This document shows, piece by piece, positions 1-27,321 of a stretch of DNA of 27,321 bases. The notes below the pieces were generated by a model that was not told the origin of the DNA, ran no database searches, and saw only the letters and a program-made list of their open reading frames with translations. The stretch lies in assembly GCF_018420025.1 (NCBI RefSeq), contig NZ_JAEDAM010000003.1, positions 1 through 27,321 of the forward strand, written 5' to 3'. This DNA is from Candidatus Vampirococcus lugosii (GTDB lineage Bacteria; Patescibacteriota; Gracilibacteria; Absconditabacterales; Absconditicoccaceae). A program made the translations under genes and the position numbers. Numbering within the stretch: the first letter of the stretch is position 1; the number at the start of each line of letters is the position of its first letter.

Positions 1-1
1 A

Positions 2-208
2 AAAGTATATAGTTATAGATGGTTAATAGAAGAAACATATAAATATTTAAAACAAGAATATAATTTAGAGAAAATACATTTAAGAAGTGAAGTTGAAAGA
101 CTAAATAATTATTATATGTATGTCTGGTTAGAAGTAGTTGAATATATATTACATAATTGAAAATTTTTCCGAAATAGAAATCAAAGAAATTACCTACAGA
201 ATCAATAA
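2..208 (+). CDS. IS4/IS5-type DDE transposase, C-terminal fragment (5' end cut by the window edge)
   Basis: Frame 2 translates to KVYSYRWLIEETYKYLKQEYNLEKIHLRSE..., which contains the Y-x2-R-x3-E-x6-K signature of IS4-family DDE transposases. The ORF ends at TAA 206-208 if the TGA at 158-160 is read as Gly, and at 160 if that TGA is a stop. Confidence 0.55.
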
Positions 209-257
209 AATTAACTTTTTTCTTTAATTTAGGTGCAGAAGATTAATTAATTTTCTC

Positions 258-285
258 TTGAAAAATTAAATAAAATCATTATATA
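258..285 (+). promoter_or_regulatory. Sigma70-like promoter candidate for the first tRNA array (TTGAAA-N16-TATATA)
   Basis: TTGAAA lies at 258-263 and TATATA at 280-285, about 50 nt upstream of tRNA-Gln. It shares the core AAAATCATTATATATA with the site at 724-751. Confidence 0.4.
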
Positions 286-336
286 TAAAAAATCATTTAA
301 TGAGATGAATTAATATTTTGTTGGATTATATTATTT

Positions 337-409
337 TGGGGTATGGCCAAGCTGGTAAGGCAACGGGCTTTGAACCCGTAATTCCTAGGTTCGAGTCCTA
401 GTACCCCAG
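337..409 (+). tRNA. tRNA-Gln (anticodon UUG)
   Basis: The cloverleaf folds by hand. The acceptor TGGGGTA pairs with TACCCCA (U1:A72, G73). The anticodon stem is ACGGG/CCCGT with loop CTTTGAA, and the T arm is CTAGG-TTCGAGT-CCTAG. It is very similar to E. coli tRNA-Gln. No CCA is encoded. Confidence 0.9.
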
Positions 410-422
410 TTTTTGTTTTTTA

Positions 423-494
423 TGCGGGATGGAGAAGTGGTATCTCGTCGGGCTCATAACCCGAAGGTCGTTGGTTCGAGTCCAACTCCCGCAA
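423..494 (+). tRNA. tRNA-Met (CAU), probable initiator tRNA-fMet
   Basis: The anticodon loop is CTCATAA. Three consecutive G:C pairs close the anticodon stem (TCGGG/CCCGA) and there is an A11:U24 pair, both initiator hallmarks. The sequence resembles E. coli tRNA-fMet overall. The 1:72 position is U:A rather than a C-A mismatch. Confidence 0.85.
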
Positions 495-528
495 ATTATA
501 ATATATTTGATAATTATTTAAGATGAGT

Positions 529-601
529 TCGGGAGTAGCTTAGTTGGTAGAGCGCCTGACTCTGAATCAGGAGATCGTAGGTTCAAGTCCTATCTCCCGA
601 G
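529..601 (+). tRNA. tRNA-Gln (anticodon CUG)
   Basis: The acceptor TCGGGAG pairs with CTCCCGA (U1:A72, G73, which are Gln identity features). The anticodon stem is CCTGA/TCAGG with loop CTCTGAA, and the T arm is GTAGG-TTCAAGT-CCTAT. Confidence 0.8.
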
Positions 602-618
602 AAAAATTAGATATATAT

Positions 619-700
619 GCCGAGGTGGTGGAATTGGCAGACACGCTTGGCTTAGAACCAAGTGCCTTACGGTGTGCGGGTTCAAGTCCCGCCCTCGGTA
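619..700 (+). tRNA. tRNA-Leu (anticodon UAG), class II with a long variable arm
   Basis: The acceptor GCCGAGG pairs with CCTCGGT. The anticodon stem is CTTGG/CCAAG with loop CTTAGAA, followed by a long variable arm GTGCCTTACGGTGT. The T arm is GCGGG-TTCAAGT-CCCGC. Confidence 0.9.
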
Positions 701-723
701 GGTTATAAATATTGAAAAATCTC

Positions 724-751
724 TTGATTTTCTAAAAAAAATCATTATATA
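724..751 (+). promoter_or_regulatory. Sigma70-like promoter candidate for tRNA-Asn (TTGATT-N16-TATATA)
   Basis: TTGATT lies at 724-729 and TATATA at 746-751, with the same spacing and the same AAAATCATTATATATA core as the site at 258-285. It sits about 15 nt upstream of tRNA-Asn. Confidence 0.4.
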
Positions 752-766
752 TATATCACAATATTT

Positions 767-839
767 TCCAAGGTAGCTCAGTTGGTAGAGCAAGTGGCTG
801 TTAACCACTGGGTCGTGGGTTCGAGTCCCACCCTTGGAG
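767..839 (+). tRNA. tRNA-Asn (anticodon GUU)
   Basis: The acceptor TCCAAGG pairs with CCTTGGA. The anticodon stem is AGTGG/CCACT with loop CTGTTAA, and the T arm is GTGGG-TTCGAGT-CCCAC. Confidence 0.9.
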
Positions 840-883
840 TATTGGTTTATTAATTTAGATTTTAAGATTATTGTTTGTAAAAT

Positions 884-1144
884 ATGGCAATTACAAAATC
901 AGCTAAAAAAGCTGTTAAAAGGAGTGAAAAAATGAGGGCTAGAAATTTAGTTTTTAAGTTGGAGATGAAGTCTTCTATAAAAAAATTAAAAAAAGCAGTT
1001 TCTGAATCTTCTTGAGAATTTGATTTACTTTTGAAAAAGGCATATTCAAGTATTGATAGAGCAGCTAGAAGGAATATTATTCATAAAAATAATGCTAGTA
1101 GAAAAAAATCTAATTTGTCTAAGTTAGTAAATAAATCTATATAA
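884..1144 (+). CDS. rpsT: 30S ribosomal protein bS20
   Basis: The product is 86 aa: MAITKSAKKAVKRSEKMRARNLVFK...IIHKNNASRKKSNLSKLV. This matches the S20 pattern (MANxKSAKKR...HKNxAxRxKxxL). It contains one in-frame TGA read as Gly. Confidence 0.9.
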
Positions 1145-1168
1145 AATTTTTTATTAATAGTTTTATTT

Positions 1169-1240: not shown

Positions 1241-1247
1241 TTGTTTT

Positions 1248-2628: not shown

Positions 2629-4602
2629 ATGAAGAAAATAATTTTGTTTTTTATGTGAATATCTTTTTTGTTTTCGATATCTTATTGAAATAACGAATAT
2701 TATAATAGATTAAATTCTTGAGAGAAATTAGTTGTTGATATATATATATCTGAATGATATAATAATGTTTATAGAAATTCTGCTAGACGAAATAATAAAG
2801 GTTATATTATACATAATTATAAGCGTTATGAAATTTCTTATGATCAATATAAAGATCAGATTATACAAAATCTAAATGATGCAATATCTGATGATAATAG
2901 TGATTTTGAAAATTCAATTTATTTGTGAATTCTTAACAGATTATGATCTGGTGAATATTTTTCTGAAGATACAGAAGAAAGATGAACATATAATAATGAT
3001 GATATAGGTTTAGATTATTCTTGTATATTTCCAACATGAGAGAATAATAGACCAGAATGAGAATGAGTAGAATATTGTAAAGATTGATGTAAACCAGTAC
3101 CTGATGCTGTACAGCCATCCCCTAAACCAAAATATCCATATTGGAGATATGTGGATTGAAATTTAGATACTGAATGTACATGGTCATGCAAAGAATGATA
3201 TTCAAAAAAATGATATTGATGTGTATCAGGTGTTGAATATGAATTGTCAAATAATGTATTATCACCTGATGCTAGAGTAGATATTAGAGTTGCTTGACTT
3301 AAAGAAGATAATGCTTTAGTATGTCGGTCTGTGCATCAACATCCTAATGTACCTGATGCAGTGAATCCTACTAAATGTGATAATCCACCAACTAATTATG
3401 TAAAAGTTTCTGAACATAAAGAATGAGCTTGATGAATATGATCTTGGGTTTATAAAGATTCAGAACGAAGAGCAACAATACATTATGATAAAATGATTTA
3501 TGATGAATGAATTCAAGTTCAATCACATATGTATAATGAATCTACTTGACAAAAAGGTTCTAGTTGAATTATACATTCTTTATGAAATGACTCAAGTTTA
3601 GATCATAATGATGATGCAAGAACTTGAAATGAAGATAAATATGGTTGTAGGTGACTTACACCAGTTGGTGAAAAAGTTATAAAATGTTGATATGGTGGTT
3701 GTAGTGATGATCTTATTGATGAAGATCTTCATGGTTGACATATTTGGGCATATTTACCTTCAAATACAGGAAATCCTAATGAACTTTGATCATGTAAATG
3801 GGCATGTAAAGATTGATATAAACCGGATTGAAATAGATGTATTCCTTTTGAGGAACGAAAAAAATTATGAGGTAGTGGTGTTCAAATATCAAGTGATACA
3901 TTGACACCAGATTCAAATGTAAATGTTGTTATTCATTGACTTAGACCAAATAATTGATGGATATGTCAGTCTGTACATGCACATCCTAATGTGCCTGATG
4001 CAGTAGATCCTACTAGATGTGATAATCCTCCGACTAATTATAAAAAAGTTTCAGAATTAGTAAATAATTCCAATTGGAGATATGATGGTCTTATGTATAA
4101 AACAGAATTGAAGTATAATCCTAATGTTCATGCTGAATGAATTAAATTACAATATGCTGCATATACTGAAGGTGTTTGAGGTATTCGTTGAAGTGCTCGT
4201 TATAGTAAAATTATTAAAGTATCAGAACAGACATCTCAGCCTCAACCAAATAATAATTGATGAGATATTAATATTAAATTATCAAGTAATGAATTAAAAC
4301 CAAATTCAAATGTAAATCTTGAAATTAATTGAATTGAAAAATCTAGTTCATGGATATGTCAGTCTGTACATGCACACCCTAATGTGCCTGATGCAATAGA
4401 TCCAGGTCGTTGTAGTAATCCTCCAACTAATTATAAAAAAGTTTCAGAATTAAAAGGTTCTTGGGTATACCAAAATTGATCTTTGAAAACAGAATTGAAG
4501 TATAATCCTAATGTTCATGCTGAATGAATTAAATTACAATATTCTATTTATGACGAAAATACTTGAAAAAAAGGTTCTAGTCAAGTTATTAATGTTAAAT
4601 AA
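2629..4602 (+). CDS. Secreted Cys-rich repeat protein (657 aa): signal peptide, two C-x-W-x-C-K-[DE]-G-Y EGF-like knots and three ~115-aa repeat modules
   Basis: I translated the ORF codon by codon and found no TAA or TAG in frame, and many TGA codons read as Gly. The N-terminus MKKIILFFMGISFLFSISYG looks like a signal peptide. A conserved module C-x-SVH-x-HPNVPDA-x2-P-x2-C-x-NPPTNY-x-KVSE occurs three times. I recognise no known family. Confidence 0.75.
3229..3579 (+). repeat. Intragenic repeat module 1 (divergent copy)
   Basis: It encodes ...LVCRSVHQHPNVPDAVNPTKCDNPPTNYVKVSE...EGIQVQSHMYNESTGQKGSS, which aligns with modules 2 and 3. Confidence 0.7.
3877..4221 (+). repeat. Intragenic repeat module 2
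   Basis: It encodes ...WICQSVHAHPNVPDAVDPTRCDNPPTNYKKVSEL...TELKYNPNVHAEGIKLQY. Long stretches are nearly identical to module 3 at the nucleotide level, offset by 393 bp for the first block (3961-4059) and 387 bp for the second (4100-4156). Confidence 0.8.
4261..4599 (+). repeat. Intragenic repeat module 3
   Basis: It encodes ...WICQSVHAHPNVPDAIDPGRCSNPPTNYKKVSEL...TELKYNPNVHAEGIKLQY...TGKKGSS. The stretch aaaacagaattgaagtataatcctaatgttcatgctgaatgaattaaattacaatat is identical to the corresponding stretch in module 2. Confidence 0.8.
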
Positions 4603-4624
4603 CTTTTATTAATTATTTTTTATA

Positions 4625-4682
4625 AAAAACTTGGATTAAGTTATATATTATTTATATAATTATGACTTAATTTAAGTTTTTT
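4625..4682 (+). terminator. Rho-independent terminator candidate (long AU-rich hairpin plus T run)
   Basis: AAAAACTTGGATTAAGT (4625-4641) pairs with ACTTAATTTAAGTTTTT (4665-4681), using two G:U wobbles. T residues follow. It lies 23 nt after the stop codon. Confidence 0.5.
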
Positions 4683-4841
4683 ATATTACAAATTATACTA
4701 TTTTATATATGAATATAGTATAATTTTTTTCTAAAAAAAATATAGAAATATAATATATTTTTAATAGTACAAAACTATTGAAATATCTTTTAAATTTCTT
4801 ATATATTAATTATAATAGTTTATTTATAAGAAATATTTTTT

Positions 4842-6878
4842 ATGGATTTGAAAGAACTTAAAACATCATCTAGATATTTGAGTATATTAAATGCTAATTG
4901 AATTTATAATATCAAAGATTTTTTTTTATATCTTCCTAGAGATTATGAAGATAGAACAGAAATAAAAAAAGTTAGAGATCTTGTGATTGATAATACTACT
5001 CAAACAACAAAATGAGAACTAATTTCAAAAAATATGATAAATACTGCTAGATGAAAAAAATTAATAGAAATTATATTAGAAGATGAAATATGAAATAAAA
5101 TTTTTGTAAATATTATGAATAATACTTATTATTTTCAAACTTTAGAAAAAGGTAAATTTTATGTTATAGTTGGTAAACCTAAATTTCAGAGATGAAAAAT
5201 AATTTTTTGGAATCCTAAAATAATTAATTCAGAAAATATGAAAAACAATGAACAAACATGAAGAATATATCCAATATATTCCGAACTTATGTGAATTAAA
5301 GCATCTCGGTTTGCCAAAAAAATTTTGGAAAATATTGAAAAGCTAGATTATTTGTTTCCTGATCCACTTCCTCAAAGTATAATTAATTCTTATTGATTGT
5401 TAAATTTATGAGAAGCTATAAGAAATATTCATTTTCCTCAAAGTTTTGAAAAACTTACAAAAGCTCAATATAGAATATATTTTGATAAAGTATTAAAAAT
5501 ACAAATTGTATCTCAAATCTCAAAAATAAAACATAAAAAAGAAATTAAATCTAAATTAATTCCTAAATGGGAAGTTATAAAAAATTTTTTGAATACATTG
5601 CCTTTTGATTTAACAAATGCACAAAAAAAAGCTATAAAAATTTGTATAGAAGATATTTGTAGTTGAAAACCTATGTTGAGACTTTTGCAATGAGATGTTG
5701 GTAGTGGTAAAACTGTTGTTGCTATTGCTATTGCTTATTATATAAAAAATGTTTTGGGTAAACAAAGTGCAATTTTGGCTCCTACTGAAGTTTTGGCAAA
5801 ACAACATTTTTTATGAATTAATAAGTTTTTACTACCTTTATGAATAAAAATTGATTTACTTACTTGATCTACATCACTGAAAGATAAGGAAAAAATAAAA
5901 CAAAATTTATTTAATTCTAATACTGATATTGTTGTATGAACTACTGCTATTATTCAAGATACTGTTGATTTTTGTAATTTATGATTTGTAGTAATAGATG
6001 AACAACATAAATTTTGAGTAAAACAAAGATGATATTTAAAAAAATTTAATACTCCTCATATTTTGCAAATGACTGCAACTCCTATTCCAAGATCTCTTGC
6101 AATAGCTTTTTTTGGTGAATTTGATGTTAGTATTATTGATGAACTTCCAGCTGGTAGGAAAAAAATTCATACCAAAGTAATTACTGAAAATCAATTTAAT
6201 AAATTGAAAGAATGGATCTTACAAAAAATTGATCAAGGTCAACAAGTATATATTATTACGCCATTGATAGAAGAAAGTGAAGCTATGGAAAATGTAGCTA
6301 ATGTTATGCAAGAATATGAAAATACTAAAGATTTTTTTTCTTCAATATCTGATAAAGTTGATGTTTTACATGGTAAAATGTCGTCCAAAGATAAAGATTT
6401 AGTTATGAATAAATTTAAAAATAATAAAACAAAAATATTAGTAAGCACTACAGTAATAGAAGTTTGAGTTGATAGTCCTACAGCAACTATTATATTAATA
6501 AAAAATTCTGAAAGATTTGGACTCTCTCAACTTCATCAACTTCGTGGTAGAGTTGGAAGAAGTGATTTACAATCATATTGTTTTTTAATGACAACTTCAA
6601 AATCTCAAGATACTATACAAAGATTAAAAAATATGGAAAAATATTCTGATTGATTTAATTTATCACAAATAGATTTACAAACTCGTGGATGATGAGAAAT
6701 ATTATGAATTAAACAATCTTGACAAACTGATATTCCTATTAATATTTTGATGGATACAGAATTTTTGGAAAAAGTACAAAATGCTAGTATTGATATACTA
6801 CAAACTTATCCTAAATTAGAAAATTTAAATTTACTTAAAAAAGAAATTTTGAAATCTGATCCTAATATTTTAAGTTAA
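4842..6878 (+). CDS. recG: ATP-dependent DNA helicase RecG (678 aa)
   Basis: Motifs found: [14 protein letters not shown] (Walker A, first Gly is TGA), [47 protein letters not shown] and TRGGGEILGIKQSG. The frame stays open across the whole gene with TGA read as Gly. Confidence 0.95.
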
Positions 6879-7073
6879 TTTTATTAAATTATATTGAAAT
6901 TATTTATTTTTTTTATTATAATTAATTGTAATTAAATTTATAGTTTATTTAAATTAATTTAAATTGTCACATATATTTAAAATATTCGTATTGATTTATG
7001 ATACTGTGATTGTTTATTTTATAAATTTATTTTATGTTTTTGCAATTTTTATATATCTAACAATAATTTTTTG

Positions 7074-7937
7074 ATGAAAATAAATGATTTTTTTGAGGAA
7101 AATAAAAAAATTTCGCCTACACAAGAAGAAAAATTTGATATTTATCAAATGTTTATACAAAAGACTCAAAAAAGAACTATACTTGATAGAGTTCCATTTT
7201 ATTCAAAAGTATTAATATATACTGTTTTCTTGTTTTTCTTATTTTTATGATTTTATACAAGTAATGAAGAAAAAAATAATAAAACTGGTATTATTGCAAG
7301 TACAAGTAAATGAACTTGAGACTATGTTTCAAGTCCTGTTTCAAAAAAAGAAAATATATCATATTCTGAAACTGAAAAATTTATAAATAAATATTATGAT
7401 TTTAGGTTTTTTGAAAAAAATAAAGATATAGTAGATGAGCAAGATAATCTAAATACAGATACTGTTTTGGCATCAAAATGAAAGCAATTATTATCGGAAG
7501 AAAATTTATGACAATTTAAAAATATTGTTAATATATCTTTTCTCAAAGAAGATCTTGATAGTTTAGTAGTCTCATATATGAATTGAGATAAAGATAATTA
7601 TCATAATTCTTATGAAAATGTTTTATGAAAAATAAATAATTTATATGAAATATTTGAAATGGAAAAATATTCATATTTATTAGAATTATCTTCTAGTTCC
7701 AATACTAAATCTATATCTAATTTACTTATGATTACAGATCAGTTAATATCTAGATTAAATAATGATTATATAATTACAAAAGAAGAATCTGAAATTTTTA
7801 ATGTTTTTATAGCTTGGTTAGTTATTCTTAGAGAAAGTGATTTTTGAAAATTTAAATGAGAAAATTTTACTGTTTTAGAAATTTTGGATCAACTTAATGT
7901 TGAACAATTTAAAAAAAATTTAACACTTAATAAATAA
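7074..7937 (+). CDS. Hypothetical membrane-anchored protein (287 aa)
   Basis: The ORF is uninterrupted under code 25. It has a single hydrophobic segment (VLIYTVFLFFLFLGFY) about 45 aa from the N-terminus, followed by a hydrophilic Asn/Lys/Glu-rich domain. I recognise no family. Its stop lies 1 nt before the next start. Confidence 0.6.
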
Positions 7938-7938
7938 T

Positions 7939-8379
7939 ATGGAATTTGATTTTCATTATTACTGGATAGCTTTGTGAATATTGTTTATTATAATAGAAAT
8001 ATTTATTTTGACATTAGATTTTTTAGCTTTGTGAATTTCTGCTATTTTGACTTGACTTTTATCAGCCGTATTTTGATTTTGATTTGAAATGCGGTGGTTA
8101 AGTTGATTTTTTTTTATGTTTTTTTCAATAATTAATATTTTTATTTTTAGAAAATTTTTGTTTCCATATATAAGATCAACAATTAAATCAGATAGTCCTA
8201 TGAGTGCAGATAATTTTGTTTGAGAAAAAGAAATTATACAAGTTGTAAGTTGAGAAAAAGTAATATTTCGTGATGGTTGATATTGGCCTGTATATTGTGA
8301 AGAAAAAATTAATAATTGAGATACTGTAGAATTGTTAGAAATGCATTGATGATGATATAAAGTTAAAAAAGTATTTTAA
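7939..8379 (+). CDS. NfeD-family membrane protein (146 aa)
   Basis: The N-terminal part has 3-4 hydrophobic helices. The C-terminus is an OB-like pattern, VGEKEIIQVVSGEKVIFRDGGYWPVYCEEKINNGDTVELLEMHGGGYKVKKV, typical of the NfeD C-terminal domain. It contains 13 in-frame TGA codons and only one GGN codon. Confidence 0.6.
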
Positions 8380-8394
8380 ATAAAAAAATTAATT

Positions 8395-9276
8395 ATGTGT
8401 TTTTTGAAAAGAAATATAGATATTTCCAATTTTTCAAATTTTAAAACAAAAGCTAGTGCTAAATATTTTTTTCAAATAAATAATTTACAAGATGTTTTAT
8501 TACTTAATGATTTATTTGATTTTGCAAATAAAAATAATTTAAAAATTTTATTTGTATGAGCAGGAACTAATATTCTTTTTGCTTTCTATGAATTTGATTG
8601 AATAATTATCAAAAATAATTTGAATTGATTTGATTATGATAAATGAGCAAAAATATTGAATATTTATTCAAATGAATTAATTTCAAATATTTCAGAAAAG
8701 TTAGAATATGAATATGATGAAAATATATGGCATAGATTTATATGACTGCCTTGAACAGTAGGTTGAGCTATTTATTGAAATGCGGGATGTTTTGGTTTGG
8801 AAATTTCATCAAATATATTAAATGTTGAAGTTTATGATTTTATAAATTGAAATTTTTTAATATTAAATAAAGAAGATATTAATTTTTGATACAGAAAATC
8901 TTTTTTTAAAGATAATTTTTGATATTTAATAATTAAAGCTAGTTTTGATTTATCAAAAATAAAAGAAAAATATTCAAGTGATGTAGATAATATTTATTTT
9001 AGAGAAAATAAACAGCCAAAATGAAATTCATGTGGTAGTTTTTTTCAAAATCCTTCAAAAGATTTTTCTGCTGGTAAATTGATACAAGAAGTAAATTTAA
9101 AATGATTTACTTATTGATCTGCTTTTTTCTCTGATAAACATGCAAATTTTCTTATGACTAATAAAGATTTTTGAGATTATAATGATTTATTATATTTAAT
9201 AAAATTGGCACAAAAAAAAGTAAAAAATCAATTTAATATAGAATTAATTCCAGAAGTTAAAATTGCAACAAACTAA
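8395..9276 (+). CDS. murB: UDP-N-acetylenolpyruvoylglucosamine reductase MurB (293 aa)
   Basis: Motifs found: VGAGTNILF, GLPGTVGGAIYGNAGCFG, QPKGNSCGSFFQNP and SDKHANFLMT. I translated the ORF fully and found no TAA or TAG in frame. Confidence 0.9.
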
Positions 9277-9392
9277 TTATAAATATTATTTATAATTGAT
9301 TTTTTTAAAATAAAAAATATTTATCTCTTGAATTTTTGTTATAAATAAATATATTAATTTCTTATATTTTATATATATAAATATTAAAAATT

Positions 9393-9902
9393 ATGAATTT
9401 ATATAAAGATTTGACTACATGGGAAAAAGATTGAGAAACTATAAATTGTATAGTTGAAATAAATAAATGAAGTATGGTGAAATATGAATTTAATAAAGAA
9501 CTAAATACGATAGAAGTAGATAGATTTTTTACTACTCCTATGCCAATACCTTATAATTATTGATTAATTCCAAATACTTTCAATGAAGATGATAATGATC
9601 CATTAGATGTTATAATATTATCTGAATTTTCAATAAATCCTTGAAGTATTTGTAAATGAAAAGTAATTTGAGTTTTACATATGATAGATTCTTGAGAAAT
9701 GGATGATAAAATTATAGTAGTTCCTGAAAAAGAACCAACATATTGAAATATAAATACATTGGAAGATCTACCTTCAATATTAAAAACTCAAATTGAATTT
9801 TTTCTTACATATTATAAAAAAATAGATTGAAAAACTACTGAACTTAATTGATGGTCTGATAAACAAGAAGCTATAAAATTAATTAAAAAATCACAAATAT
9901 AA
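9393..9902 (+). CDS. ppa: Inorganic pyrophosphatase, family I (169 aa)
   Basis: Motifs found: VEINKGSMVKYEF, PYNYGLIPNTFNEDDNDPLDVIILS and DDKIIVVP. All 10 glycine positions are encoded by TGA, and there is no in-frame GGN codon. Confidence 0.9.
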
Positions 9903-9937
9903 TTATTGCATTTTTTGTATTTTATAAATTTTTTATT

Positions 9938-10246
9938 ATGAATAATTTAATTAATACTGATACTTTAAAAAAATTAAAATCTAGTTTTTTGATTAAACTT
10001 GAAAGAAAAAATAAAATAGTAGATAATTGGGATGCTTATGATGATGAAAAAAAAGAAAATATAATTAATGTAATTGATGAAATTATTGAATTAGAAAAAA
10101 AAATAGTTCTAAATTGAATTAATGAAGATAATTCTTTTGTTGAAACCTTCAAATTTCATATATCAAAATCTATGGTTAAAGTTGTTAAATTAAAAGAAGA
10201 TAATGATAATATTGATGAAATAGAAAAATTACTTGATGATCTTTAA
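9938..10246 (+). CDS. Hypothetical small acidic protein (102 aa)
   Basis: The ORF is open with one TGA read as Gly. The product is charged and likely helical (…DEKKENIINVIDEIIELEKK…IDEIEKLLDDL). I recognise no family. Confidence 0.45.
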
Positions 10247-10261
10247 AAAAATCATTAATAT
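10233..10261 (+). promoter_or_regulatory. Promoter candidate (TTGATG-N17-TAATAT) with the same AAAAAAATCAT spacer motif as the tRNA promoters
   Basis: TTGATG lies at 10233-10238, the spacer ends in AAAAAAATCAT, and TAATAT lies at 10256-10261. It is 110 nt upstream of the PBP start codon. Confidence 0.3.
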
Positions 10262-10370
10262 ATAATTATGTTAGTGATTTTTTTTAATTAATGTTAAAAA
10301 TGTATTGAATTTTTTTTATAATTCTTTAATAAAGAATATGAAAAATTTATTTTTATTTTTATGATAAAGT

Positions 10371-13238: not shown

Positions 13239-13267
13239 TATATTCATTATAATGCTGTATATATTTG

Positions 13268-13294
13268 CTTCTTTTTATTTTTTTTAAAAAGAAG
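13268..13294 (+). terminator. Weak AU-rich hairpin downstream of the PBP gene (possible terminator)
   Basis: CTTCTTTTT (13268-13276) pairs with AAAAAGAAG (13286-13294) around a T-rich loop. Only two of the pairs are G:C, so stability is low. Confidence 0.25.
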
Positions 13295-13300
13295 TTGTTT

Positions 13301-13372
13301 GGTGCGGTCGTCTAATGGATAGGACATAGTCCTGCGAAGACTAGAATCCAGGTTCGATTCCTGGTCGTGCCA
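13301..13372 (+). tRNA. tRNA-Arg (anticodon GCG)
   Basis: The acceptor GGTGCGG pairs with TCGTGCC, using three G:U pairs. The D arm is GTCTAATGGATAGGAC. The anticodon stem TAGTC/GACTA is perfect and the loop is CTGCGAA. The T arm is CCAGG-TTCGATT-CCTGG, the discriminator is A73, and no CCA is encoded. Confidence 0.75.
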
Positions 13373-13418
13373 TATTGTTTTAATAAAAAAATTATTTTAG
13401 AAATTCTAATTTATATAA

Positions 13419-16400: not shown

Positions 16401-16682
16401 GTTACACAAAAAAATAATAAAACTAATATCTCAAATGATACTAATAATGATGATTGAATAGAAGTGATTACATATGAAGATGAAACTAATATTTCAAATG
16501 ATACTAATAACGATGATTGAATAGAAGTAATTACATATGAACCTACACAAAATAATTATTGAAGTGAAAATAATAAAAATTCTGTTATTGAAAATAATAA
16601 GTCAAAATATAAAGCTAAACCTAATCAAGCTTGTCCTTGTGGTAGTGGTAAGAAATATAAAAAATGTTGTTGAAAACATTAA
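13419..16682 (+). CDS. secA: Preprotein translocase ATPase SecA (1087 aa)
   Basis: Motifs found: [14 protein letters not shown] (Gly is TGA), [91 protein letters not shown] and the C-terminal zinc-binding tail [16 protein letters not shown]. Confidence 0.95.
16422..16547 (+). repeat. In-frame 63-bp tandem duplication (2 copies) in the SecA C-terminal linker
   Basis: Copy 1 (16422-16484) and copy 2 (16485-16547) differ at 3 positions over the first 57 nt. They encode [19 protein letters not shown] twice. Confidence 0.85.
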
Positions 16683-16830: not shown

Positions 16831-19800
16831 ATGAAAACGAAATTTATCATTTTATCTATTTTTTCTTTATTTTTAATTTGATTTATGCTATTTAATTTAA
16901 ATAATATTACAAATACAGTTAAAGCTAGTTATTTAAATAATACTTTTCAAGATTCTGAATTTGATGAAGCTTTGGATTGGATGCATAATTCCAAGTTAAC
17001 TAAATATAATAAATCAAATGAATTTAGACCTATTGATTCTCTTACTAGAGAACAGGCGGCAAGTTTTTTTGACTGATTTGCATCTACAATTTGAAAAGAT
17101 TGACAAGATAATTTAGATTGTGATTTTGATGATTTGGATGATGCAGATGAAACATTAATTGATAATATACAAAATGTTTGTAAATTATGAATTATGAAAT
17201 GATCTTGAAATAAATTTTATCCAAAAAAATCTATTAATAGAGCAGAATTTTTTACAGTAGTTGTTAGAACTTTGGATTCTTTCAAAAATGAAGGTCTTGA
17301 TCCATGGTGGAAAGAATATTTTGAGACAGCTCAAGATTTATGACTTACAAATGAAGATAATGTTTATGCACAAGATAGAAATATTTTGAGATATGAAGCA
17401 TGATTGATTTTGTATAGAGCTAAAAATGAAACTAATTTAAATAATTTAAAAGATCCTAAAGTGGAAGAACAAGAAGAACAAGAAAGAGAATTAAAATCTT
17501 TTCAGATAGATTTTGAACAATCTATGGACACTAAGTCAGTTTTATCAAATATGAGAATTTATCCTGAAATAGAATATGAACTTGTTTGGAGTGAAAATGA
17601 TTCTATAGCTGAAATTGCTTTTTCAAATAATTTTGATGAAGATACTGAAGTTTTGGTAAATATTAGTGACGATGCCAAAAATTCTAATTGAGAAAAACTT
17701 ACTCAAACTTTATCAAAAAAATTTAAAGTAGATTCTGCTCCTCAAATTGATTTTGTTAGTCCTGAATGAATAATTACTGATGTTAATAAAAATATTACAG
17801 TAAGATTTACATCTCCTATGGTTTCATTTACTAATTTGGATAATCAAGCTGAGTGTCCTATACAGATAACCCCTAATATTGATTGAAAATGTGTTTGGAT
17901 TACAACAAGTACTTTTCAATTTAGACCTGTTAATTCTTTCCCTAGATGAGCAAATTATTCAATATATATTCCATCTTGAATAGAAAATATTTCTGGAAAT
18001 AAAACTATTAATTCCAAAAAATTTGAGATTAAAACTCCAGATTTTGAACTTATTTCATCTCCAAAAAATATAAATAAAGATGATGATTTAGTTTTAGTTT
18101 TTAATGATAAAATTGATTTAGATAAATTTAAAAATAATTTTTCTATTTCTAATTTTGATAATTCTGAACTTGATTTTGAATATGCAAAAAAAGAAACTAA
18201 TATTGATTGACAATATGATGTTTTGACTAATTCAGTTTCTATTTTTCCAAAAAATTGAGATTGGTGATATAATAAAAAATATCAAATAAGTATAAATTCG
18301 TCTTTAACTTCAAAAAGATGAAATTTATGATTAAAACAAGATATTAGTAAGTCATTTATAACAGATAGTTTTTTAAGTAATTATAGTTTATTTATTTATG
18401 AAGATTTAAATTATGAAAATTTGAATTTAGAATGAAATATGAGATTCTCTAATTTTAAAAATATTATTTGAAATGATATTATTAATAAAAATAATCCAAA
18501 TATATTATTGTATTTTAATGAAGAAGTACCACTTGATAAATCATTATTTGAATTAGATTATGATTTTGATTTGTCTTATTTTTTGATAGAAGATAATGAA
18601 CAAATTGTAGAAGATAAGAAATCATTAGTTTTAAGTATTAATTGAAATATAAGTAATTCACTTGATGTTAAAATTAAAGCTTCTCAAATAAGTAGTAGTG
18701 ATGATATAAATTTATCTTTCACAACAAAAGAAAAAAATAAAATTTTAGATTTTGAAATGATAAATTACAAAAAATCTTGTATTACTTTTGAAAATAAAAT
18801 TCATCAAGATGAAATTAATTATGATGCTTTTGATTTTTCTGAATATTGAAATGTAAGATCTATTCAAGAAATTTATAAATATCATAGTGAACAAGCATGT
18901 TCCTATGAAGTTTGAAAAAATAAATATTTATTGTATACAAATTTAAATCCTGAAACAGATTATGTTTTGAATATATCAAATAATTTACTTGATATAGATA
19001 ATTATAATTTAGATAAAGATTATTCTTATGAATTCAAAACACCAAAAGCTATGAATGAAGATAAAAATGTAAGTTTTATTGATCAACAAGATTTGGTTTT
19101 GATTCCTAGTTCAATAAATCCTATAACAGTATGAATAGCTACTACAAATATAGAAAAAGTTAATATAAAGGTTTGTCAATGAGATCTTGAATTGATTTCT
19201 AATAATAAATTTAGTAATTCTAATGATTGTAAAGAAAAAATTCTTAATATTGAAAATCTTTGATTTGAACCAAAAATAACTGTTATAGATTTGCAAAAAG
19301 TTTTTGGAAAAGAATTTGGTAAAAATTTAATAAGTTTTGAAATATCAAAAATAGATGCTGATAAAACTAAAAGAGAACTTGAAAATGATTCAAATTTAAA
19401 TAAATCTTTTTTTGTATCAGATATATCTGCTACTTTAAAAAATGCAAAAAATTCTTTATTGTGGCTTAGAGATTATAATAATTGAAATAATTTGACGGAT
19501 CAAATAGAAAAAATAGAAATTTATAATTCTAAATATAACTATGATCAAAGAAAATACTTTTTAGAATTAGAAAAAGAAATTGCTTTTAATTCTTTATGAA
19601 ATTGACTTTATAAATTCTTTAATTCTATTGATTGAGCTAGTTTAATTGTTATTACATTAAAATCTGGGCAAAAGACTTTAATTAAAGATATTTCATATTT
19701 TTATGGTAGTAAAAATATTAATACATATTTATTTACTGATAGACCTTTGTATAGAGCTTGAGATGAAGTAAATATAAAATGAGTAAGTAGAATACAGGAT

Positions 19801-22800
19801 GCTAATTGATATATATTAAATAGAAGGAATTTTACACTAACAGTTACTTGACCAAAAAGAGAAGAAATTTTTAAAAAATCTATTAATTTAGATGAAAATT
19901 CTTCTTTTGATGTAACTTTTGAACTTCCTCAAGATTCTAATTTATGAAATTATAATGTTAGTGCTTGAGCAAATTGATGACATACTTTTTCTGTACAAGA
20001 GTTTGAAACTCCTGATTTTAAGGTTGAATCTGATTCTCAAGAATCTAATTATTTACAAGGACAAAGTGCAAAAATAAATATATCATCTGAATATTATTCT
20101 GGTTTACCTATGGCAAATGCAAATGTAAATTATACTGTTAAAGCACAAACTTATAATTTTGATGCTGTTTGATATTCTGATTATCATTTTGGTGAACAAA
20201 AAGATTTTTGGTGATATAGATACAATTATTGACAAATAAATAATAATGAATTTGTAGAATCTTGAGAAGATATTTTATGAAGTGATTGAAAATGAGTTAT
20301 AAATATTGATTTAAAAGAATATAATGAAGATAAAATTTATACTGTTTCAAGTATTGTAAAAGATCCAAATACAAAAAAAACAGTTTCTAATAATTCAAAT
20401 TTTAAATCTTTGAGATCAGATATTTTTCTTTGAATGAAATTTGATAATTATTTTTATAATTATAAAGATACTACAAACATTGATTTTGTAAGTCTTGATA
20501 TAGATTGAAATTCAATATCAAATACAAGATTTGATTTTAAAGTTTACAAAGTTGATTATGAATATGATAAAATTTCTAAACAAAGAAAAAGTAAAGAAAA
20601 TTTATTATATGAAGAAGAAATTGTTAGTAATTGACAATGAAAAGCAAGTAAAGAGTTTGAATTTAATGAAGTAGGAGAATATAGATTTGAAATAATTACT
20701 AAAGATTGAAAATATAAAACTACAAAAATATTTTATATATGAGCTCAAGGTTTACTTTCTCCTATTAACGAAAATAATGAAATATCTATAAATTCAAATA
20801 AAGAAAAATATGATGTATGAGAAAATGCTGAATTTATTATTTCAAGTCCTTATGAAAATATTCAAGCTCTTGTTACAGTGGAAAAAATGGATCAAATACT
20901 TAATTATGAAATAATAGATATTGATGATTTAAATCAAGTTTATAATTTGAAAATAGAAAAAAGATATTTGCCAAATTTTGAAATAAAAGCTTATTTGATA
21001 AAAGATGTAGCTGTAAATCAAACTGCTTTACAAGAATTAAAAGAAATTAGATTATCTATGCAAGAGATAGAACAAGAATTGCAAGAAAGATATGAATGAA
21101 TAATAATTCCTTTTCCAGAAATAATTTATGATAGATGAATTTTGCCACCAATATTTCCTATTCCACAAGAATTATCTGATGAAGATAAAGAATTATATGA
21201 AAAATTATCTTCTTATAGATATAAAGAACAAGAACTTATGCAAGAAATATTGCCATCATATTATGAATGAAGTAAAAAAATATCAGTAAATATTGATTAT
21301 GTTAAACTAAATATTCAAGTAAATCTTAATAAAAATTATTATTTGCCAAGAGATGAACAAGAAATTACTTTGACTATTGAAGATAATAATTGAAATCCAG
21401 TAAATGGACAAGCAACTATTAGAATAGTTGATGAAAGTTTACTTGCTTTGATGGATAATACTGTTGATATTGTAGAAGCTTTCTATTCTGAGGTTGAAAA
21501 TAGAGTATGAACTTCTTCAAATTTATCTTATCTTATATCTAGAATATTATTTACACAAGATTCATTTGAAAATGAATTAGAAGGTGTTCCTGATTGAATG
21601 TGATGAGAGATGTTGAAAAGAGAGGAATGAGTTGTGTATAGTGAAATGAGTTTTGGTGATGCATCTATAGCTAATTTGGGACTTGATTCAACTGATAATG
21701 AAATTGAAGATAATAATGAAAGTGAAGATAATAATGAAACTTTCATAAGAGAGGATTTTAAAGATTTAGCTTATTGGCAAGCTAGTGTAGATGTAAAAAA
21801 TTGACAAGCTGTTATTAATGTTGATCAATTACCAGATAATTTAACAACTTGGGTAATAGATTGATTTGTTTATACTGATAATACTTATGTTTGAATGTTC
21901 CAAGATGATTTTAAAGTTCAACAAGATATAGGTATATTATCTCAATTTCCAAGATTTTTGGTAAGTGGTGATGAATTTATTATGTCTGCTTTGATAGTTA
22001 ATAACACTAATCAAAAACAAGTTTTGGATGCTAATTTGCAAATGACAAATTCAAATATTTCTCAATCTAATAAACAAATTGAAGTTCCTGCAAATTCTTC
22101 TGAATTAGTTGAATTTGAAGTAAAAATTAATTCTTTACCAAAAGATGTAGATATTAATGAATTTAATTCTCAAATAATTCTTTGAGTATCAAATGAAAAT
22201 TTATCTGATACAATTAGAGTAAATAGAGCGATAAGACAACCTAGCACTTGAGAATATGTATTTACTAATTGAAGTACAAAAGACACTTCTTTTGAAGAAC
22301 AAATTTATTTGCCAGATTATTTGGAAAAAAATGCACATTTAGATATAAGTTTATGAGCTAGTATTTTAACTAATATTTTACATAATTTACAAGATTATAT
22401 TAGTTATCCTTGAGATAATTTAAATTCAAGATTAAACTTTTTGGAAATATCAAGTAGTTTAAAAAATCTTTTTGAAGATTTGTGAGAAATAGATATTTTG
22501 AATTCTTATCAAATAAAAGATTATGATGGAAATACTTATTCAATAAAAGATATTGAAAATATGATTTTGTCAGAATTGCCTGAATATTTGGAATCTAATT
22601 GAGGATTATCTTATTTTAAAGAATGTTATTGGGCAGATGATTGTAGTAATTTTAATTTAACTGCTAAATTTTTGAAATTAGATTTACAAGTAAATTGAAT
22701 TGATAATTCAAAACTTATAAATTATTACAAAAATCAACTTACACAAAAGATTCAAAAATATAATATTATTGCTAAAAATGTTTCTAATTTTATTCCTTTG

Positions 22801-23937
22801 GCAATTCATTGAGAATATGATTATATAAGAAATAATTTAAAAAATAAAGAAAATTATACTAATTTGGAAAAATTAGAATATATTAAACTTTATAATTTAA
22901 TGTCAGATAATTGAGAGTATTCAGATAAGTTTTATCAAGATTTATTAAATAATATATTCATAGAAGCTAGATCCTCACTTTTACCATCAAATAGTAATTA
23001 TATAAATAATCTTGTATCTACTTCTATGATGCTTTCTATAATGTTAGATAAATCAGAAATTGAAAAATTACAAACTGAAAATATGACTAGATTTTTATTG
23101 GAAAATAGAAATGAAGATTGAAAATATTATAATTGAGATATATCATATATTATCAAAGCATTAAATGATTATGTAAATACTACTAATGAATTAGATGATG
23201 TAGATTTTACTGCTTGAGCTTATTTGAATGAAAATTTGATAAGTGAAACTGAATTTGATATGTCAAATAGATTCTCAGTTTTTAAAGATAAAATTGATAT
23301 TAGTGAATTAGTTAATTGGTGAGAAAATAATTCATTAGGTTTTGTTAAGGAGGGTAGTGGTAAATTATATTATGATGTATGAATGAGATATTTCTTACCA
23401 AATAATGAAATATCTGCAAGAGATGAAGGTTTGATTTTGACTAGAAATTATTATGATTATGAAGAATATAACGAAGCTTATGAAAAAAAATGTAATTCTT
23501 GGTGGTGGGGACCTGCTATTTGTACAAATGAAAAAGTGAAAAATATTGATCCTATTACTAATGCAAAAAAATGAAATTATATAGTATGAGAATTGCAATT
23601 AATTGTTCCTTATGAAAGAAATAATGTTCAAATTAAAGATTATTTGCCAGCTGGTGCTGAGGTTTTGAATGTTAATTTTGATACAGTAAGTGATGATGTA
23701 AATGATGTAACTTGACAGACAAGTAATTATTGGAGATGATTTGATCATATTGAACAGTGAAATGAAATGATTTATCTGTATGCAGATCATTTGAGTGCAT
23801 GAACTTATACATATACTTATGTAATATCAGCAAGTCAAGTATGAGAATTTAATTTAAGACCTGCTGTAGCAGAATTGATAGAAAGACCAGAAATTTGGGG
23901 TAGAAGTTCTTGAATGATATTTGAGATAAATAATTAA
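16831..23937 (+). CDS. Giant surface protein (2368 aa): signal/TM segment, three SLH repeats, Ig-like domains and a bacterial alpha-2-macroglobulin (A2M/MG-domain) core lacking the thioester motif
   Basis: I translated every codon and found no in-frame TAA or TAG over 7.1 kb. SLH-like repeats: FRPIDSLTREQAASFF, FYPKKSINRAEFFTVVVRTL and NILRYEAGLILYRA. A2M hallmarks: FTDRPLYRAGDEVNIKG, VQEFETPDFKVE, YYSGLPMANANVNYTV, RIVDESLLAL, REDFKDLAYWQASV...LPDNLTTWVIDGFVYTD, GSGKLYYDVGMRYFLP, DYLPAGAEVLN and YTYTYVISASQVGEFNLRPAVAELIERPEIWGRS. Confidence 0.85.
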
Positions 23938-23959
23938 TTATTTGTTATATTATAAAAAG

Positions 23960-23986
23960 ACCAGTTTCAAAAAGCTGGTTTTTTTA
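23960..23986 (+). terminator. Rho-independent terminator after the A2M-like gene
   Basis: ACCAGTTT (23960-23967) pairs with AAGCTGGT (23972-23979) around the loop CAAA. It is followed by TTTTTTT at 23980-23986 and lies 23 nt after the stop. Confidence 0.7.
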
Positions 23987-24077
23987 TTGAAAAAAATATT
24001 TTAATATTTATAAACTATTTCTTATCTTTGGAAGATATTTTTTTAAAAAAATTTATAAAATTTATATATAAAATATT

Positions 24078-25370
24078 ATGTATATATGTTCAAATTGTTG
24101 ATATGCAACATTGAGTAAGCTTTGAAAATGTCCATCTTGTTGAGAATTTTGAACTTTGGAAAAAGATGATACTAAAAATAAAGTAAAAAAAACAGCACAA
24201 AAAACTACTTTAACTTATGGAACAAGTTTAAAAACAAAATCAATACAAGATTCAAAATTTTTTGATATAAAAAATAATGAATTAAAAAGGGTTTATCAAA
24301 ATTGAATAAAACAATGATGAGTTTATTTGCTTGGATGACAACCTTGAATATGAAAATCAACTATTATTTTACAAATTATTCAAGATTTATTGGAAAATAA
24401 TAAAATTAATATTTGATATTTCTCTGGTGAAGAATCTCAAGATCAAATATATTCAAGATTTAAGAGAATAAATAAAGAAAATAATACTCAAGATCTTGAT
24501 ATATATACAGCAAGTTCCCTTGAAGATATTGTACAAACTATTGCAGAAAATGATTATAATTTTTTTATAATTGATAGTATACAAACAGTATATTCAAGTA
24601 ATATTGATTGAATAGCATGATCACCTTCGCAAGTAAAATTTTGTTCAGAAAAAATATGAGAATTTGCTAAACAAAAATGAATAACATGTTTTATTATAGG
24701 TCATGTTACTAAATGATGAGAAATTGCTTGACCAAAATATTTGGAACATATAGTTGATATGGTTTCATATTTGGAGTGAGATAGATTTGGACAATATAGA
24801 TTTCTTAGATCTATGAAAAATAGGTTTGGTAGTACTGATGATGTAAGTATTTTTGAAATGTGATTATTTTGATTAATTCCTGTTTATGATATTAAAGAAA
24901 GAATTATAAATACTGCAAATACTAGTATTCCATGAAGTGTTTTTACAATGTGAATAGATAATGGTAGACCAGTTATAGTAAATTTGGAAGTTTTATTAAA
25001 TAAGACAAATTATAAATACCCTCAAAGAATGGCAGTATGAATTGATAACAATAGATTAAATTTAGTTATAGCTATATTGGAAAGATATTTAAAATTAAAT
25101 TTATGAAATTTTGATATATATGTAAATCTTCCATGAGAATTTAAATTTTATGATTCTGGTTTAGATTTAGCATTAGCTTGAGCAATATTATCTCAATATC
25201 AAAATAAATTAGTAGATAAAAATATTATTTTTATATGAGAAATTGGTTTAGGTTGACAGATTCTATCTAGTAAATTGCATGAAAAAAGAAAAAAAGAGAT
25301 TCCAAGAGATTTTGAAATAATAGATTTTAATAATTTAAAATATATTGTAGAATTAAAAAATTTAATCTAG
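24078..25370 (+). CDS. radA: DNA repair protein RadA/Sms (430 aa)
   Basis: It has an N-terminal C4 zinc finger (CSNCGY...CPSCGEFG), Walker A LLGGQPGIGKST (several Gly are TGA), IIDSIQ, HVTKGGEIAGPK, the KNRFG motif and a Lon-like C-terminal domain (GIDNNRLNLVIAILER...GEIGLGGQI). It ends in TAG, the only TAG stop in the window. Confidence 0.92.
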
Positions 25371-25498
25371 ATTTTTTCTTATAATTATAATTTAATTATT
25401 TGAAACTATATTTAATATAGCTATTTTAAATTTGCAAAATAAAATAATTTAATTAAAATATATGAGTTTAATATTAAAAATTAAAACAAAAATATAAA

Positions 25499-27187
25499 AT
25501 GTCTATAAATTTTAAAAAATGATTTAATTCAAGAAATAATTCAAAATTAGAAAAAATATCTAATATATCCAAAAAAGATTTATTAGATATATTATCTTAT
25601 ACATGAGTTCTTGAAAGGCTTTGAAATAGTGAAAAAAGATGAAATATATCTAAATTTAAAAAAAATAATAATTGTTTAACTGAAAGTGAATTTAAAAAAA
25701 TTAATAATATAGTATGAGAATATGTTGAACAGTATTGACAAGATATTGATTCTCTTATTTATGATAATTATGGAATAAATTTTGATGAAAAAATAGATTT
25801 ATTATTTAAACAAATATCAAAAGTATTATCTGAAAGAAATAGTGATATATCAGATTATTTATTAAATAATTGAATAAATTTTCATAAAAATCTTGATTTT
25901 ACTTGATGACTTAAATTTGATATATGAAATTTTGAAAATCTAGAAAATGAAGATTTAAAGAAATTTTTATTTAATCCAAATTTTACAAGATTAGAATGAG
26001 AAAAATTATATAGTCGTGGTTATTGATATTTTTTTAATTTAAATTGACTTTATAAAGATGAGAATTGATTTATGAAACTTGAATCAAATATATTTTTTGA
26101 TACTGTTTTTTATTATTACAGAGATATTAATAATTTATTACAAAGTTTTAATAATAAAAAAATTAGTAATATTAGTGAAGAAGAAAAAAAATCTTTATTA
26201 ATTTTATTGGAACATTACAAAAATATTTCTTTTTTCTTGATTAATATATTTACTAATATACAAAATCCAGAATTTTTTAAAAATTCTACTAAAATGAAAT
26301 GACAACAATTTCAAAAATATTATGAAAAAAATGACAACAACCCTTTTAATAATAAAGATTTTTTTGAAAAAATTCCTAGTATAATATCTTATTTGGAATC
26401 CGAAGCAGAAAAAACTGTTGATTTATTTAATGATATTAATTTATGATTTGATAATAAAATAAATTTTGAGCAAGAAAATATATGAAAAGATATGTTTGAT
26501 AATATTTGAGATTTTTTTGATTATTTAAATAAAGTAGCAGAAGAAAGTAATAATGAAGGTGAAGTTAAAAATATTAAAAAATTACAAAATAAAATTTCTA
26601 TGTCATTTATTAGAATCATAAGAGAACAAGATAATCCTGCCAAAATGTTATTAGCAGCAACTAATTTATTATCAAAAATGGATTCAAAAGATTTTGAAAA
26701 AGATTTAGTTTTGTTATGAGTTTTGTATGGTGGTATAGAATATCCATTTTTTGTGAAATATATGATTAAAAGATTATGATTAAGTGAAAAATCTTTAGAT
26801 ATTTATCTAACTACAGTGTCTAATTATAATATGAGAAATAAAAAAGAAATAGCAAGTATATGAAATTATCCTTGTAGTAAAGAAATAGATTGATGATGAA
26901 AAAATTTTTTGGTTCTTGATGATAATATTTATAATGGCTGAACTTTGCAATCATTGATAAATCAATTATGACAAAATAATAATATAATAGATGCAAGTGC
27001 AGTAGAAGTTTGACTTAGAAGAACAAATTTCTCAAAACTTAAAGAATGAAGTAATATGTCTTTTCTTCTTTCAAAAGTAAAAATGTCTGCATCAACAACT
27101 CCTATATCAAAAAAAATAAATAAATATAATAATTTAATTTTAAAATATATTTCAAATCGTTTGCCAAATATTGTTGGTAAACCTTAA
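25499..27187 (+). CDS. Hypothetical protein (562 aa) with a C-terminal phosphoribosyltransferase-like (type I PRT) domain
   Basis: I translated every codon and the frame is open under code 25. The C-terminal ~180 aa show the PRT-fold pattern LVLLGVLYGGIEYPFF...GKNFLVLDDNIYNGGTLQSL, a degenerate PRPP-binding loop. I recognise no family for the N-terminal ~380 aa, which are Asn/Lys/Phe-rich. Confidence 0.55.
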
Positions 27188-27272
27188 TTTATAATTGTCA
27201 AAAATATCTTTTGTTATAATTTTTTAATGTAAAAAGACTTGAATATATATTTATTTTCTTTATATTTTTCAA

Positions 27273-27294
27273 AACTCAATTAATTAATTGAGTT
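27273..27294. other. Perfect 22-nt palindrome AACTCAATTAATTAATTGAGTT
   Basis: All 11 positions pair with their mirror positions. It lies 86 nt downstream of the last stop codon and has no T run after it. It could be an operator-type protein-binding site or a hairpin. Confidence 0.3.
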
Positions 27295-27321
27295 ATATAT
27301 CATATTTAGTGTATATTTAAT

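Follow-up and report, generated by a model that had tools for sequence, protein, structure and literature searches.

Glycine-encoding UGA, and most probably tryptophan-encoding CGA and CGG, on an AT-rich contig of the Absconditabacterales

Introduction

Which genetic code does a stretch of DNA use when gene calling with the standard bacterial code (table 11) destroys every one of its genes? This is the question raised by the contig NZ_JAEDAM010000003.1, which was analyzed over its entire length of 27,321 bp (the window) and has a G+C content (GC) of just 22.8%. An initial annotation, made from the sequence by itself, had read TGA as a sense codon for glycine and assigned the locus to translation table 25, the code of the SR1/Gracilibacteria. 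That UGA encodes glycine in these bacteria was reported in 2013 (by Campbell et al. and by Rinke et al., both cited here through PMC8629427 and PMC13059738). More recently, a computational analysis using Codetta inferred that in Absconditabacteria this is accompanied by a second change, CGA and CGG being read as tryptophan (Shulgina and Eddy, 2021, eLife; PMC8629427).

We have examined what TGA, CGA and CGG encode in the window. Our overall reading, to which we would give a probability of about 0.93, is that the contig is a piece of the chromosome of an uncultured, extremely AT-rich member of the Absconditabacterales that uses the known code of its lineage, in which UGA is a glycine codon and CGA and CGG are most probably tryptophan codons.

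Results

Continuous reading frames require TGA to be sense

Translated with table 11, the window contains a single open reading frame (ORF) of at least 100 amino acids, at 6063-6467; its 134 amino acids are the upper limit given by the initial annotation. The longest interval between stop codons corresponds to 144 amino acids. Once TGA is read as sense, 14 complete genes emerge, every one of them on the + strand, the three longest lying at 16831-23937 (7,107 nt), 13419-16682 (3,264 nt) and 10371-13238 (2,868 nt). The same number of genes had been proposed before, including ORFs of 7.1, 3.3 and 2.9 kb free of in-frame TAA and TAG. Together with 10 tRNA genes, the 14 protein genes fill 90.6% of the contig. 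Readings in which TAG or TAA was made sense were also tried, and gave no coherent set of genes on one strand.

There is no in-frame TAA or TAG among the 7,982 codons of the 14 genes, whereas the other two frames contain these triplets at 84.5 per 1000; the probability of this arising by chance is ∼10^-306. TGA occurs in frame 367 times, i.e., at 46 per 1000 codons (4.6%), and is present in all 14 genes. Thirteen genes end in TAA and only radA ends in TAG, exactly as first described. A large part of the sequence can be checked against an independent public assembly. An 11,832-bp contig of the Logan assembly SRR13241708 corresponds to positions 4513-16344 of the window with zero mismatches, and because the two are identical we conclude that the in-frame TGA codons are not sequencing errors.

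TGA codons occupy glycine positions

In order to avoid circularity, TGA was masked as X in the query sequences ahead of every alignment. SecA was compared with its orthologues from 79 standard-code bacteria of many phyla, drawn from a scan of contigs representing one genome per species; the scan yielded mostly standard-code bacteria and a single SR1 locus. Of the 47 TGA codons of secA, 35 could be aligned. The corresponding columns have a majority of glycine in 25 of these 35 cases, and a majority of tryptophan in none. Fourteen TGA codons fall on columns in which glycine makes up 90% or more, and the glycine column of the MKT-G-EGKT motif is occupied by glycine in 76 of the 79 orthologues.

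A Codetta-style likelihood was calculated for each codon from the same alignment. For TGA the value for glycine was +40.1, followed by asparagine at −50.9, with tryptophan far below at −123.3, while TGG was assigned to tryptophan. The calculation recovered the expected amino acid for all codons represented by at least 7 columns. It also flagged AAG as a possible arginine codon, which we attribute to a lineage-wide substitution of arginine by lysine, relatives carrying lysine at those columns; flags for ATC, CAC, CAG and TCC, with one to three columns each, are noise.

Comparison with proteins of known structure led to the same result. Against the best match in the PDB, glycine lies opposite TGA at 6 of 10 positions in Ppa, 9 of 14 aligned positions in MurB (1hsk), 19 of 29 in RadA (5lkm), 13 of 23 aligned in RecG (1gm5) and 11 of 18 aligned in PBP1, the class A penicillin-binding protein (PBP). 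Pooling the five pairs gives glycine at 58 of 94 sites and tryptophan at none (binomial p ∼1e-39 for a glycine background of 8%). At the DNA level, a GGN codon of the secA gene of an oral SR1 bacterium is found opposite 21 of the 47 TGA codons of the window gene.

The initial annotation had placed TGA exactly on invariant glycines, and at the motifs this is correct to the nucleotide: Q-[TGA]-DVGSGKT of RecG at 5691, MKT-[TGA]-EGKT of SecA at 13770, KT-[TGA]-T of the PBP at 12348, and further positions in MurB (8743, 8752, 8764 and 8776) and RadA (24336, 24345 and 24351). The generalization does not extend to the MurB sequence AIY-[TGA]-NAG, where methionine stands opposite TGA both in the Staphylococcus aureus protein and in a second MurB structure. 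The further statement that tryptophan is incompatible with the TGA sites, TGG being the tryptophan codon, is borne out by the lack of any tryptophan-majority column and by the likelihood values. At the level of comparative sequence analysis, it is thus shown that in this contig UGA is glycine, UAA and UAG are stops, and UGG is tryptophan.

CGA and CGG behave as tryptophan codons

CGA and CGG are rare in the window. Among the arginine codons of the standard code there are 5 CGA and 5 CGG, compared with 11 CGT, 188 AGA and 16 AGG. CGA and CGG are each present at 6.3 per 10,000 codons, which is inside the range published for Absconditabacteria (fewer than 7 per 10,000 for CGG, fewer than 37 for CGA; PMC8629427). 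The ten codons lie at 2788, 3325, 3466, 3856, 5307, 8092, 12489, 12837, 14061 and 16059.

Since a tryptophan in a database relative can be a TGA codon translated with table 4, we kept only those translations that have glycine at the TGA columns, and added a check at the level of DNA. The clearest case is CGG881 of SecA (nt 16059), where tryptophan is found in 76 of the 79 standard-code orthologues (97%). In relatives translated with table 25 this column contains 52 tryptophan and 9 arginine residues, and similar distributions were found for CGA215 of SecA (50 tryptophan, 9 arginine) and CGA823 of the PBP (14 tryptophan, 7 arginine). Columns corresponding to CGT and AGR codons contain 0-0.1% tryptophan in the same set of relatives. 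When SecA is compared with the standard-code orthologues, arginine forms the majority in 23 of 27 aligned AGR columns and in the sole CGT column, and none of the assessable CGA or CGG codons lies on a column where arginine is conserved.

In a codon alignment of secA from seven Absconditabacteria, CGA or CGG stands opposite TGG 54 times, and opposite AGA, AGG, CGT or CGC not once; the other 24 pairings are mostly with codons for phenylalanine, tyrosine or other hydrophobic residues. In the secA genes of relatives with higher GC (designated L084, L086 and L087) CGA is used as a tryptophan codon as often as TGG or more so. Taking these comparisons together, CGA and CGG are in all likelihood read as tryptophan, rather than arginine, in the source organism. 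The assignment of the locus to code 25 is consequently right for TGA and incomplete for CGA and CGG.

This pattern is consistent with what has been described of decoding in the candidate phyla radiation (CPR). In CPR bacteria tRNA-Arg has the anticodon GCG, not ACG, and reads only CGU and CGC, leaving CGA and CGG to other tRNAs (PMC8629427). The window carries such a tRNA-Arg(GCG), at 13300-13373 on the + strand (ARAGORN, Rfam), in agreement with that scheme. Arginine would then be encoded by AGA and AGG together with CGU, the last of these being read by this tRNA. UAA and UAG are the only stops left. Drawing on the literature on relatives, UGA would be read in the source organism by a tRNA-Gly with anticodon UCA, expected to have G1:C72, C2:G71, G3:C70 and U73, and release factor 2 would have been lost. 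CGA and CGG would be read by a tRNA with anticodon UCG, CCG or both, expected to carry the tryptophan identity elements G73 and no A20.

Several observations weigh against this reading of the code. The glutamine found opposite CGA215 of SecA in standard-code bacteria means that the tryptophan assignment at this site comes from relatives of the same lineage only, and CGG at 5307 in recG is opposite glutamine in the Thermotoga maritima protein. The column of CGG707 in the PBP is variable, with 15 threonine, 5 tryptophan, 3 phenylalanine and 2 arginine residues in relatives translated with table 25. In g3, a gene with three internal repeats (see below), the CGA at 3466 corresponds to tyrosine and leucine at the same position of the two paralogous repeats. 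Only three of the ten CGA and CGG codons in the window are on clear tryptophan columns, and five (5307, 8092, and 2788, 3325 and 3856 in g3) are uninformative. Nor is the predicted decoding machinery encoded nearby: the 10 tRNAs of the contig include no tRNA-Gly, no tRNA-Trp and no UCA anticodon of any kind, and there is no tRNA with anticodon UCG or CCG on these 27 kb (ARAGORN, Rfam), while a Pfam search revealed neither prfA nor prfB in the 27-kb window. Lastly, the reassigned codons may be decoded ambiguously. A tRNA scan of seven loci from relatives found no tRNA gene.

Other readings of the code

The alternative that fares best is that table 25 applies without modification, so that CGA and CGG are still arginine codons and the sites facing tryptophan are genuine substitutions of tryptophan by arginine. 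This is the code used for the source record of the contig and in recent papers on the Absconditicoccaceae. There are just ten CGA and CGG codons from which to judge, half of them uninformative, and the decoding of CGG is known to differ among related Gracilibacteria (PMC8629427). Yet such substitutions would have had to strike a tryptophan conserved in 97% of bacteria at codon 881 of SecA, and to alternate 54 times with TGG across seven genomes without ever exchanging with another arginine codon. They would also have left no assessable CGA or CGG on an arginine-conserved column, whereas 23 of 27 AGR columns and the only CGT column have arginine in the majority. We regard this alternative as improbable.

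A very AT-rich, reduced genome with UGA as a sense codon might equally suggest table 4, in which UGA encodes tryptophan. Automatic gene callers do choose that table for such DNA, and the PBP of the window is itself on record with tryptophan at all 56 TGA sites. However, in no alignment does any TGA column have a tryptophan majority, and the likelihood falls from +40 for glycine to −123 for tryptophan. TGA encodes the glycines of P-loops and of the KTGT motif, the columns where tryptophan is conserved are those of TGG, and all close homologues belong to Absconditabacteria. The chance that table 4 is correct is very slight indeed.

Least credible of all is a standard code in which TGA represents selenocysteine, programmed readthrough, pseudogenes or sequencing errors, or else the recoded DNA of a phage or mobile element, since the bare presence of in-frame TGA is all that speaks for it, against 367 such codons over 14 genes devoid of in-frame TAA and TAG, glycine and not cysteine opposite them, an independent assembly identical over 11,832 bp, and a housekeeping gene content (secA, recG, murB, PBP1, radA, ppa, rpsT and 10 tRNAs) among which Pfam detected no phage genes.

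The source belongs to the Absconditabacterales

We return to the preferred reading, that of the published lineage code. Apart from the window's own record, the closest match to SecA is 61% identical (GCA_964483725.1), and Candidatus Absconditicoccus praedator, a member of the family Absconditicoccaceae in the order Absconditabacterales, is 57% identical in SecA and 51% in the PBP. Among the best 120 matches to SecA and to the PBP, those that carry a name are nearly all Absconditabacterales or candidate division SR1. In a neighbour-joining tree of SecA, the window clusters with A. praedator and a further three sequences, inside the Absconditabacteria and apart from the standard-code outgroups. 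By these affinities the source is placed in the Absconditabacterales (SR1, CPR/Patescibacteria), with A. praedator as its closest named relative; the earlier assignment to the SR1/Gracilibacteria is thereby narrowed. Because SecA is only 57-61% identical to that of any relative, the source organism probably represents a separate genus or family. The gene order surrounding secA is not shared with the nearest relatives.

UGA is the dominant glycine codon

The description of TGA as the preferred glycine codon is fully confirmed. It accounts for 367 of the 477 glycine codons (77%), the remainder being 87 GGT, 21 GGA, 1 GGC and 1 GGG. All 10 glycine codons of ppa are TGA, with no GGN, and the gene labelled NfeD-like (see below) has 13 TGA and a single GGT; these counts are the ones given at the outset. 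The GC content at third codon positions of the protein genes is 6-16%.

A comparison of secA genes shows that this preference varies with base composition. The share of TGA among glycine codons is 0.72 in the window (GC 23%), 0.75 in GCA_964483725.1 (GC 28%), 0.69 in A. praedator (GC 30%) and 0.53 in L086 (GC 29%), but 0.17 in L084 (GC 33%), 0.22 in L087 (GC 36%) and 0.13 in the oral SR1 bacterium (GC 37%). The share of TGA thus tracks GC across the seven genes, and the dominance of TGA is therefore a common property of the low-GC branch, rather than a peculiarity of this locus. Strong mutational pressure toward AT accounts for this codon usage. Under the reassigned code the change from GGA to UGA is synonymous, and every glycine codon other than UGA contains at least two G or C; the 77% share of UGA can be ascribed to the combination of strong AT pressure with this synonymous change.

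The glycine codons are not evenly distributed over conserved and variable positions. In SecA, columns with 90% glycine or more take up 14 of the 18 GGT codons, whereas for TGA the number is 14 of 47 (Mann-Whitney p = 0.003). In the pairs with PDB entries, glycine is opposite 28 of 34 GGN codons, compared with 58 of 94 TGA codons. The enrichment of GGT at invariant glycines could reflect selection for fidelity of decoding. It could equally have a neutral origin, should glycines that are more recent and under weaker constraint appear mostly in the form of TGA. A composite proposal, that the window represents a new genus- or family-level lineage of Absconditabacterales at the AT extreme in which UGA is the dominant glycine codon and GGU is selectively kept at invariant glycines, strikes us as rather unlikely. 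If selective retention of GGU were real, it would mean that decoding of UGA by tRNA-Gly(UCA) is less accurate or slower than that of GGN, for example through wobble of U34 with UGG, and that selection for fidelity shapes where a reassigned codon can spread.

Translation with the wrong table is widespread in databases

The initial annotation had warned that the contig was liable to mis-annotation, and this has indeed occurred. SecA of the window is on record exactly as translated with table 25, from which we conclude that the source record was already annotated with that table. However, the PBP (10371-13238) is present in a public collection as a table-4 translation originating from Logan SRR13241708, with 56 replacements of glycine by tryptophan and otherwise identical. 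Judged by what they have at the TGA columns, 58 of 119 retrieved homologues of SecA and 91 of 119 of the PBP appear to be translations of the table-4 type. For this lineage, annotation with table 4 is a systematic error.

Where table 11 leaves no gene intact, table 4 yields full-length and plausible proteins in which tryptophan replaces ∼5% of the residues. Even table 25 writes arginine for conserved tryptophan, making about 10 such errors in the window, one of them at amino acid 881 of SecA.

Genes of the window

All of the following features are on the + strand. The gene for ribosomal protein S20, rpsT (884-1144; 86 amino acids, 1 TGA, TAA stop; Pfam Ribosomal_S20p, E = 3.8e-21), is flanked by two tight clusters that together comprise nine tRNA genes between 336 and 1488 (ARAGORN, Rfam). 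The first, at 336-840, encodes tRNA-Gln(UUG), Met(CAU), Gln(CUG), Leu(UAG) and Asn(GUU), and the second, at 1169-1488, encodes tRNA-Thr(UGU), Asp(GUC), Glu(UUC) and Val(UAC). Both glutamine isoacceptors, UUG and CUG, are thus encoded despite the extreme AT bias. A hypothetical membrane protein of 162 amino acids with 3 TGA codons follows at 1939-2427.

The next gene, g3 (2629-4602), encodes an orphan, secreted protein of 657 amino acids with three repeats and contains 43 TGA codons, as well as four of the ten CGA and CGG codons. Among 5.8 billion proteins it matched only itself, with no homologue. The protein is rich in cysteine, has an N-terminus resembling a signal peptide, and is built of three repeats of ∼130 amino acids with the motif C-x-SVH-x-HPNVPDA-x-(D/N)P-x2-C-x-NPPTNY. 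The GC content of g3, 28.4%, is somewhat above that of the neighbouring genes, and 8 of the 21 CGN codons of the window are found in it.

The recG gene (4842-6878; 678 amino acids; PDB 1gm5, E = 2.7e-123) has 24 TGA codons, including that of the Walker-A glycine at 5691, and CGG at 5307. Beyond it are a hypothetical protein of 287 amino acids with 9 TGA (7074-7937) and a small membrane protein of 146 amino acids (7939-8379), with 13 TGA to 1 GGT and CGG at 8092, the latter within a hydrophobic segment. This last protein had been called NfeD-like. The codon counts attached to that claim were right, but the label has only a sub-threshold match to Pfam NfeD (E = 0.13). The architecture, with N-terminal transmembrane helices and a short C-terminal β domain, fits the label, which we retain as tentative.

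Two enzymes come next: murB (8395-9276; 293 amino acids, 15 TGA), identified by Pfam MurB_C (2.7e-23) and FAD_binding_4 and by PDB 1hsk, and the inorganic pyrophosphatase gene ppa (9393-9902; 169 amino acids, 10 TGA; PDB 1qez, E = 1.5e-30). A hypothetical protein of 102 amino acids with 1 TGA lies at 9938-10246. The class A PBP gene (10371-13238; 955 amino acids, 56 TGA) encodes both transglycosylase and transpeptidase domains, as judged by PDB matches to PBP1a and by its homologues; the glycine of KTGT is the TGA at 12348, and there is a CGG at 12489 and a CGA at 12837.

Downstream of the gene for tRNA-Arg(GCG), secA (13419-16682) encodes 1087 amino acids with 47 TGA codons, among them that of the MKT-G-EGKT glycine at 13770, and has CGA at 14061 (amino acid 215) and CGG at 16059 (amino acid 881). 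An insertion of ∼100 amino acids (approximately residues 545-642, nt 15050-15345) is shared with Absconditabacteria relatives and is not found in SecA of Bacillus subtilis. The region encoding the C-terminal tail includes a 63-bp tandem duplication at 16420-16541 (1.9 copies, 94% identical), so that one short peptide sequence is encoded twice, with one TGA in each copy.

The longest gene (16831-23937) encodes an alpha-2-macroglobulin-like surface protein of 2,368 amino acids, with 88 TGA codons and neither TAA nor TAG in frame throughout its 7.1 kb. Pfam identifies MG2, bMG10, A2M_BRD (the bait region), A2M and bMG6 domains, together with an N-terminal SLH domain and Big_5 Ig-like domains. From this composition the product looks like a large, surface-anchored protein of the protease-trap type in a tiny episymbiont genome. 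It is followed by radA (24078-25370; 430 amino acids; PDB 5lkm, E = 1.1e-63), which has 29 TGA codons, those of the Walker-A motif at 24336, 24345 and 24351, and the sole TAG stop. The last gene (25499-27187; 28 TGA) encodes a protein of 562 amino acids with a C-terminal phosphoribosyltransferase domain (Pfam Pribosyltran, E = 5.4e-7). The domain covers residues 383-489 only, and the long N-terminal region has no match to a family.

Discussion

The reassignments of UGA to glycine (2013) and of CGA and CGG to tryptophan (2021) were already published for this lineage, and the contig follows that known code. Its value is practical more than conceptual. [quoted passage not shown]

How does the window compare with the systems already described? 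Like table 25 of the SR1/Gracilibacteria it has UGA as glycine, UAA and UAG as the only stops, UGG as tryptophan and a low GC content, and its host belongs to the Absconditabacteria. Without differing from that table in kind, it stands at the high end of UGA usage, with 77% of glycine codons, and the behavior of CGA and CGG lies outside that table. The code of Shulgina and Eddy is the closer match, with rare CGA and CGG on tryptophan columns, their alternation with TGG, arginine encoded mainly by AGA, tRNA-Arg(GCG) and very low GC, although the 22.8% of the window is below the 0.26-0.38 quoted for clades with reassigned CGA and CGG (PMC8629427). A. praedator, for which there is a complete genome (CP054059.1), shows a similar takeover by UGA, which makes up 69% of the glycine codons of its secA at ∼30% GC, but it differs in the gene order at secA, and its SecA is only 57% identical. 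The most distant comparison is with table 4, used by the Mycoplasmatales and Entomoplasmatales and by insect endosymbionts. There too a stop codon, UGA, has been captured for sense in AT-rich, reduced genomes; the difference is that in those organisms it became tryptophan, whereas in the window it is glycine.

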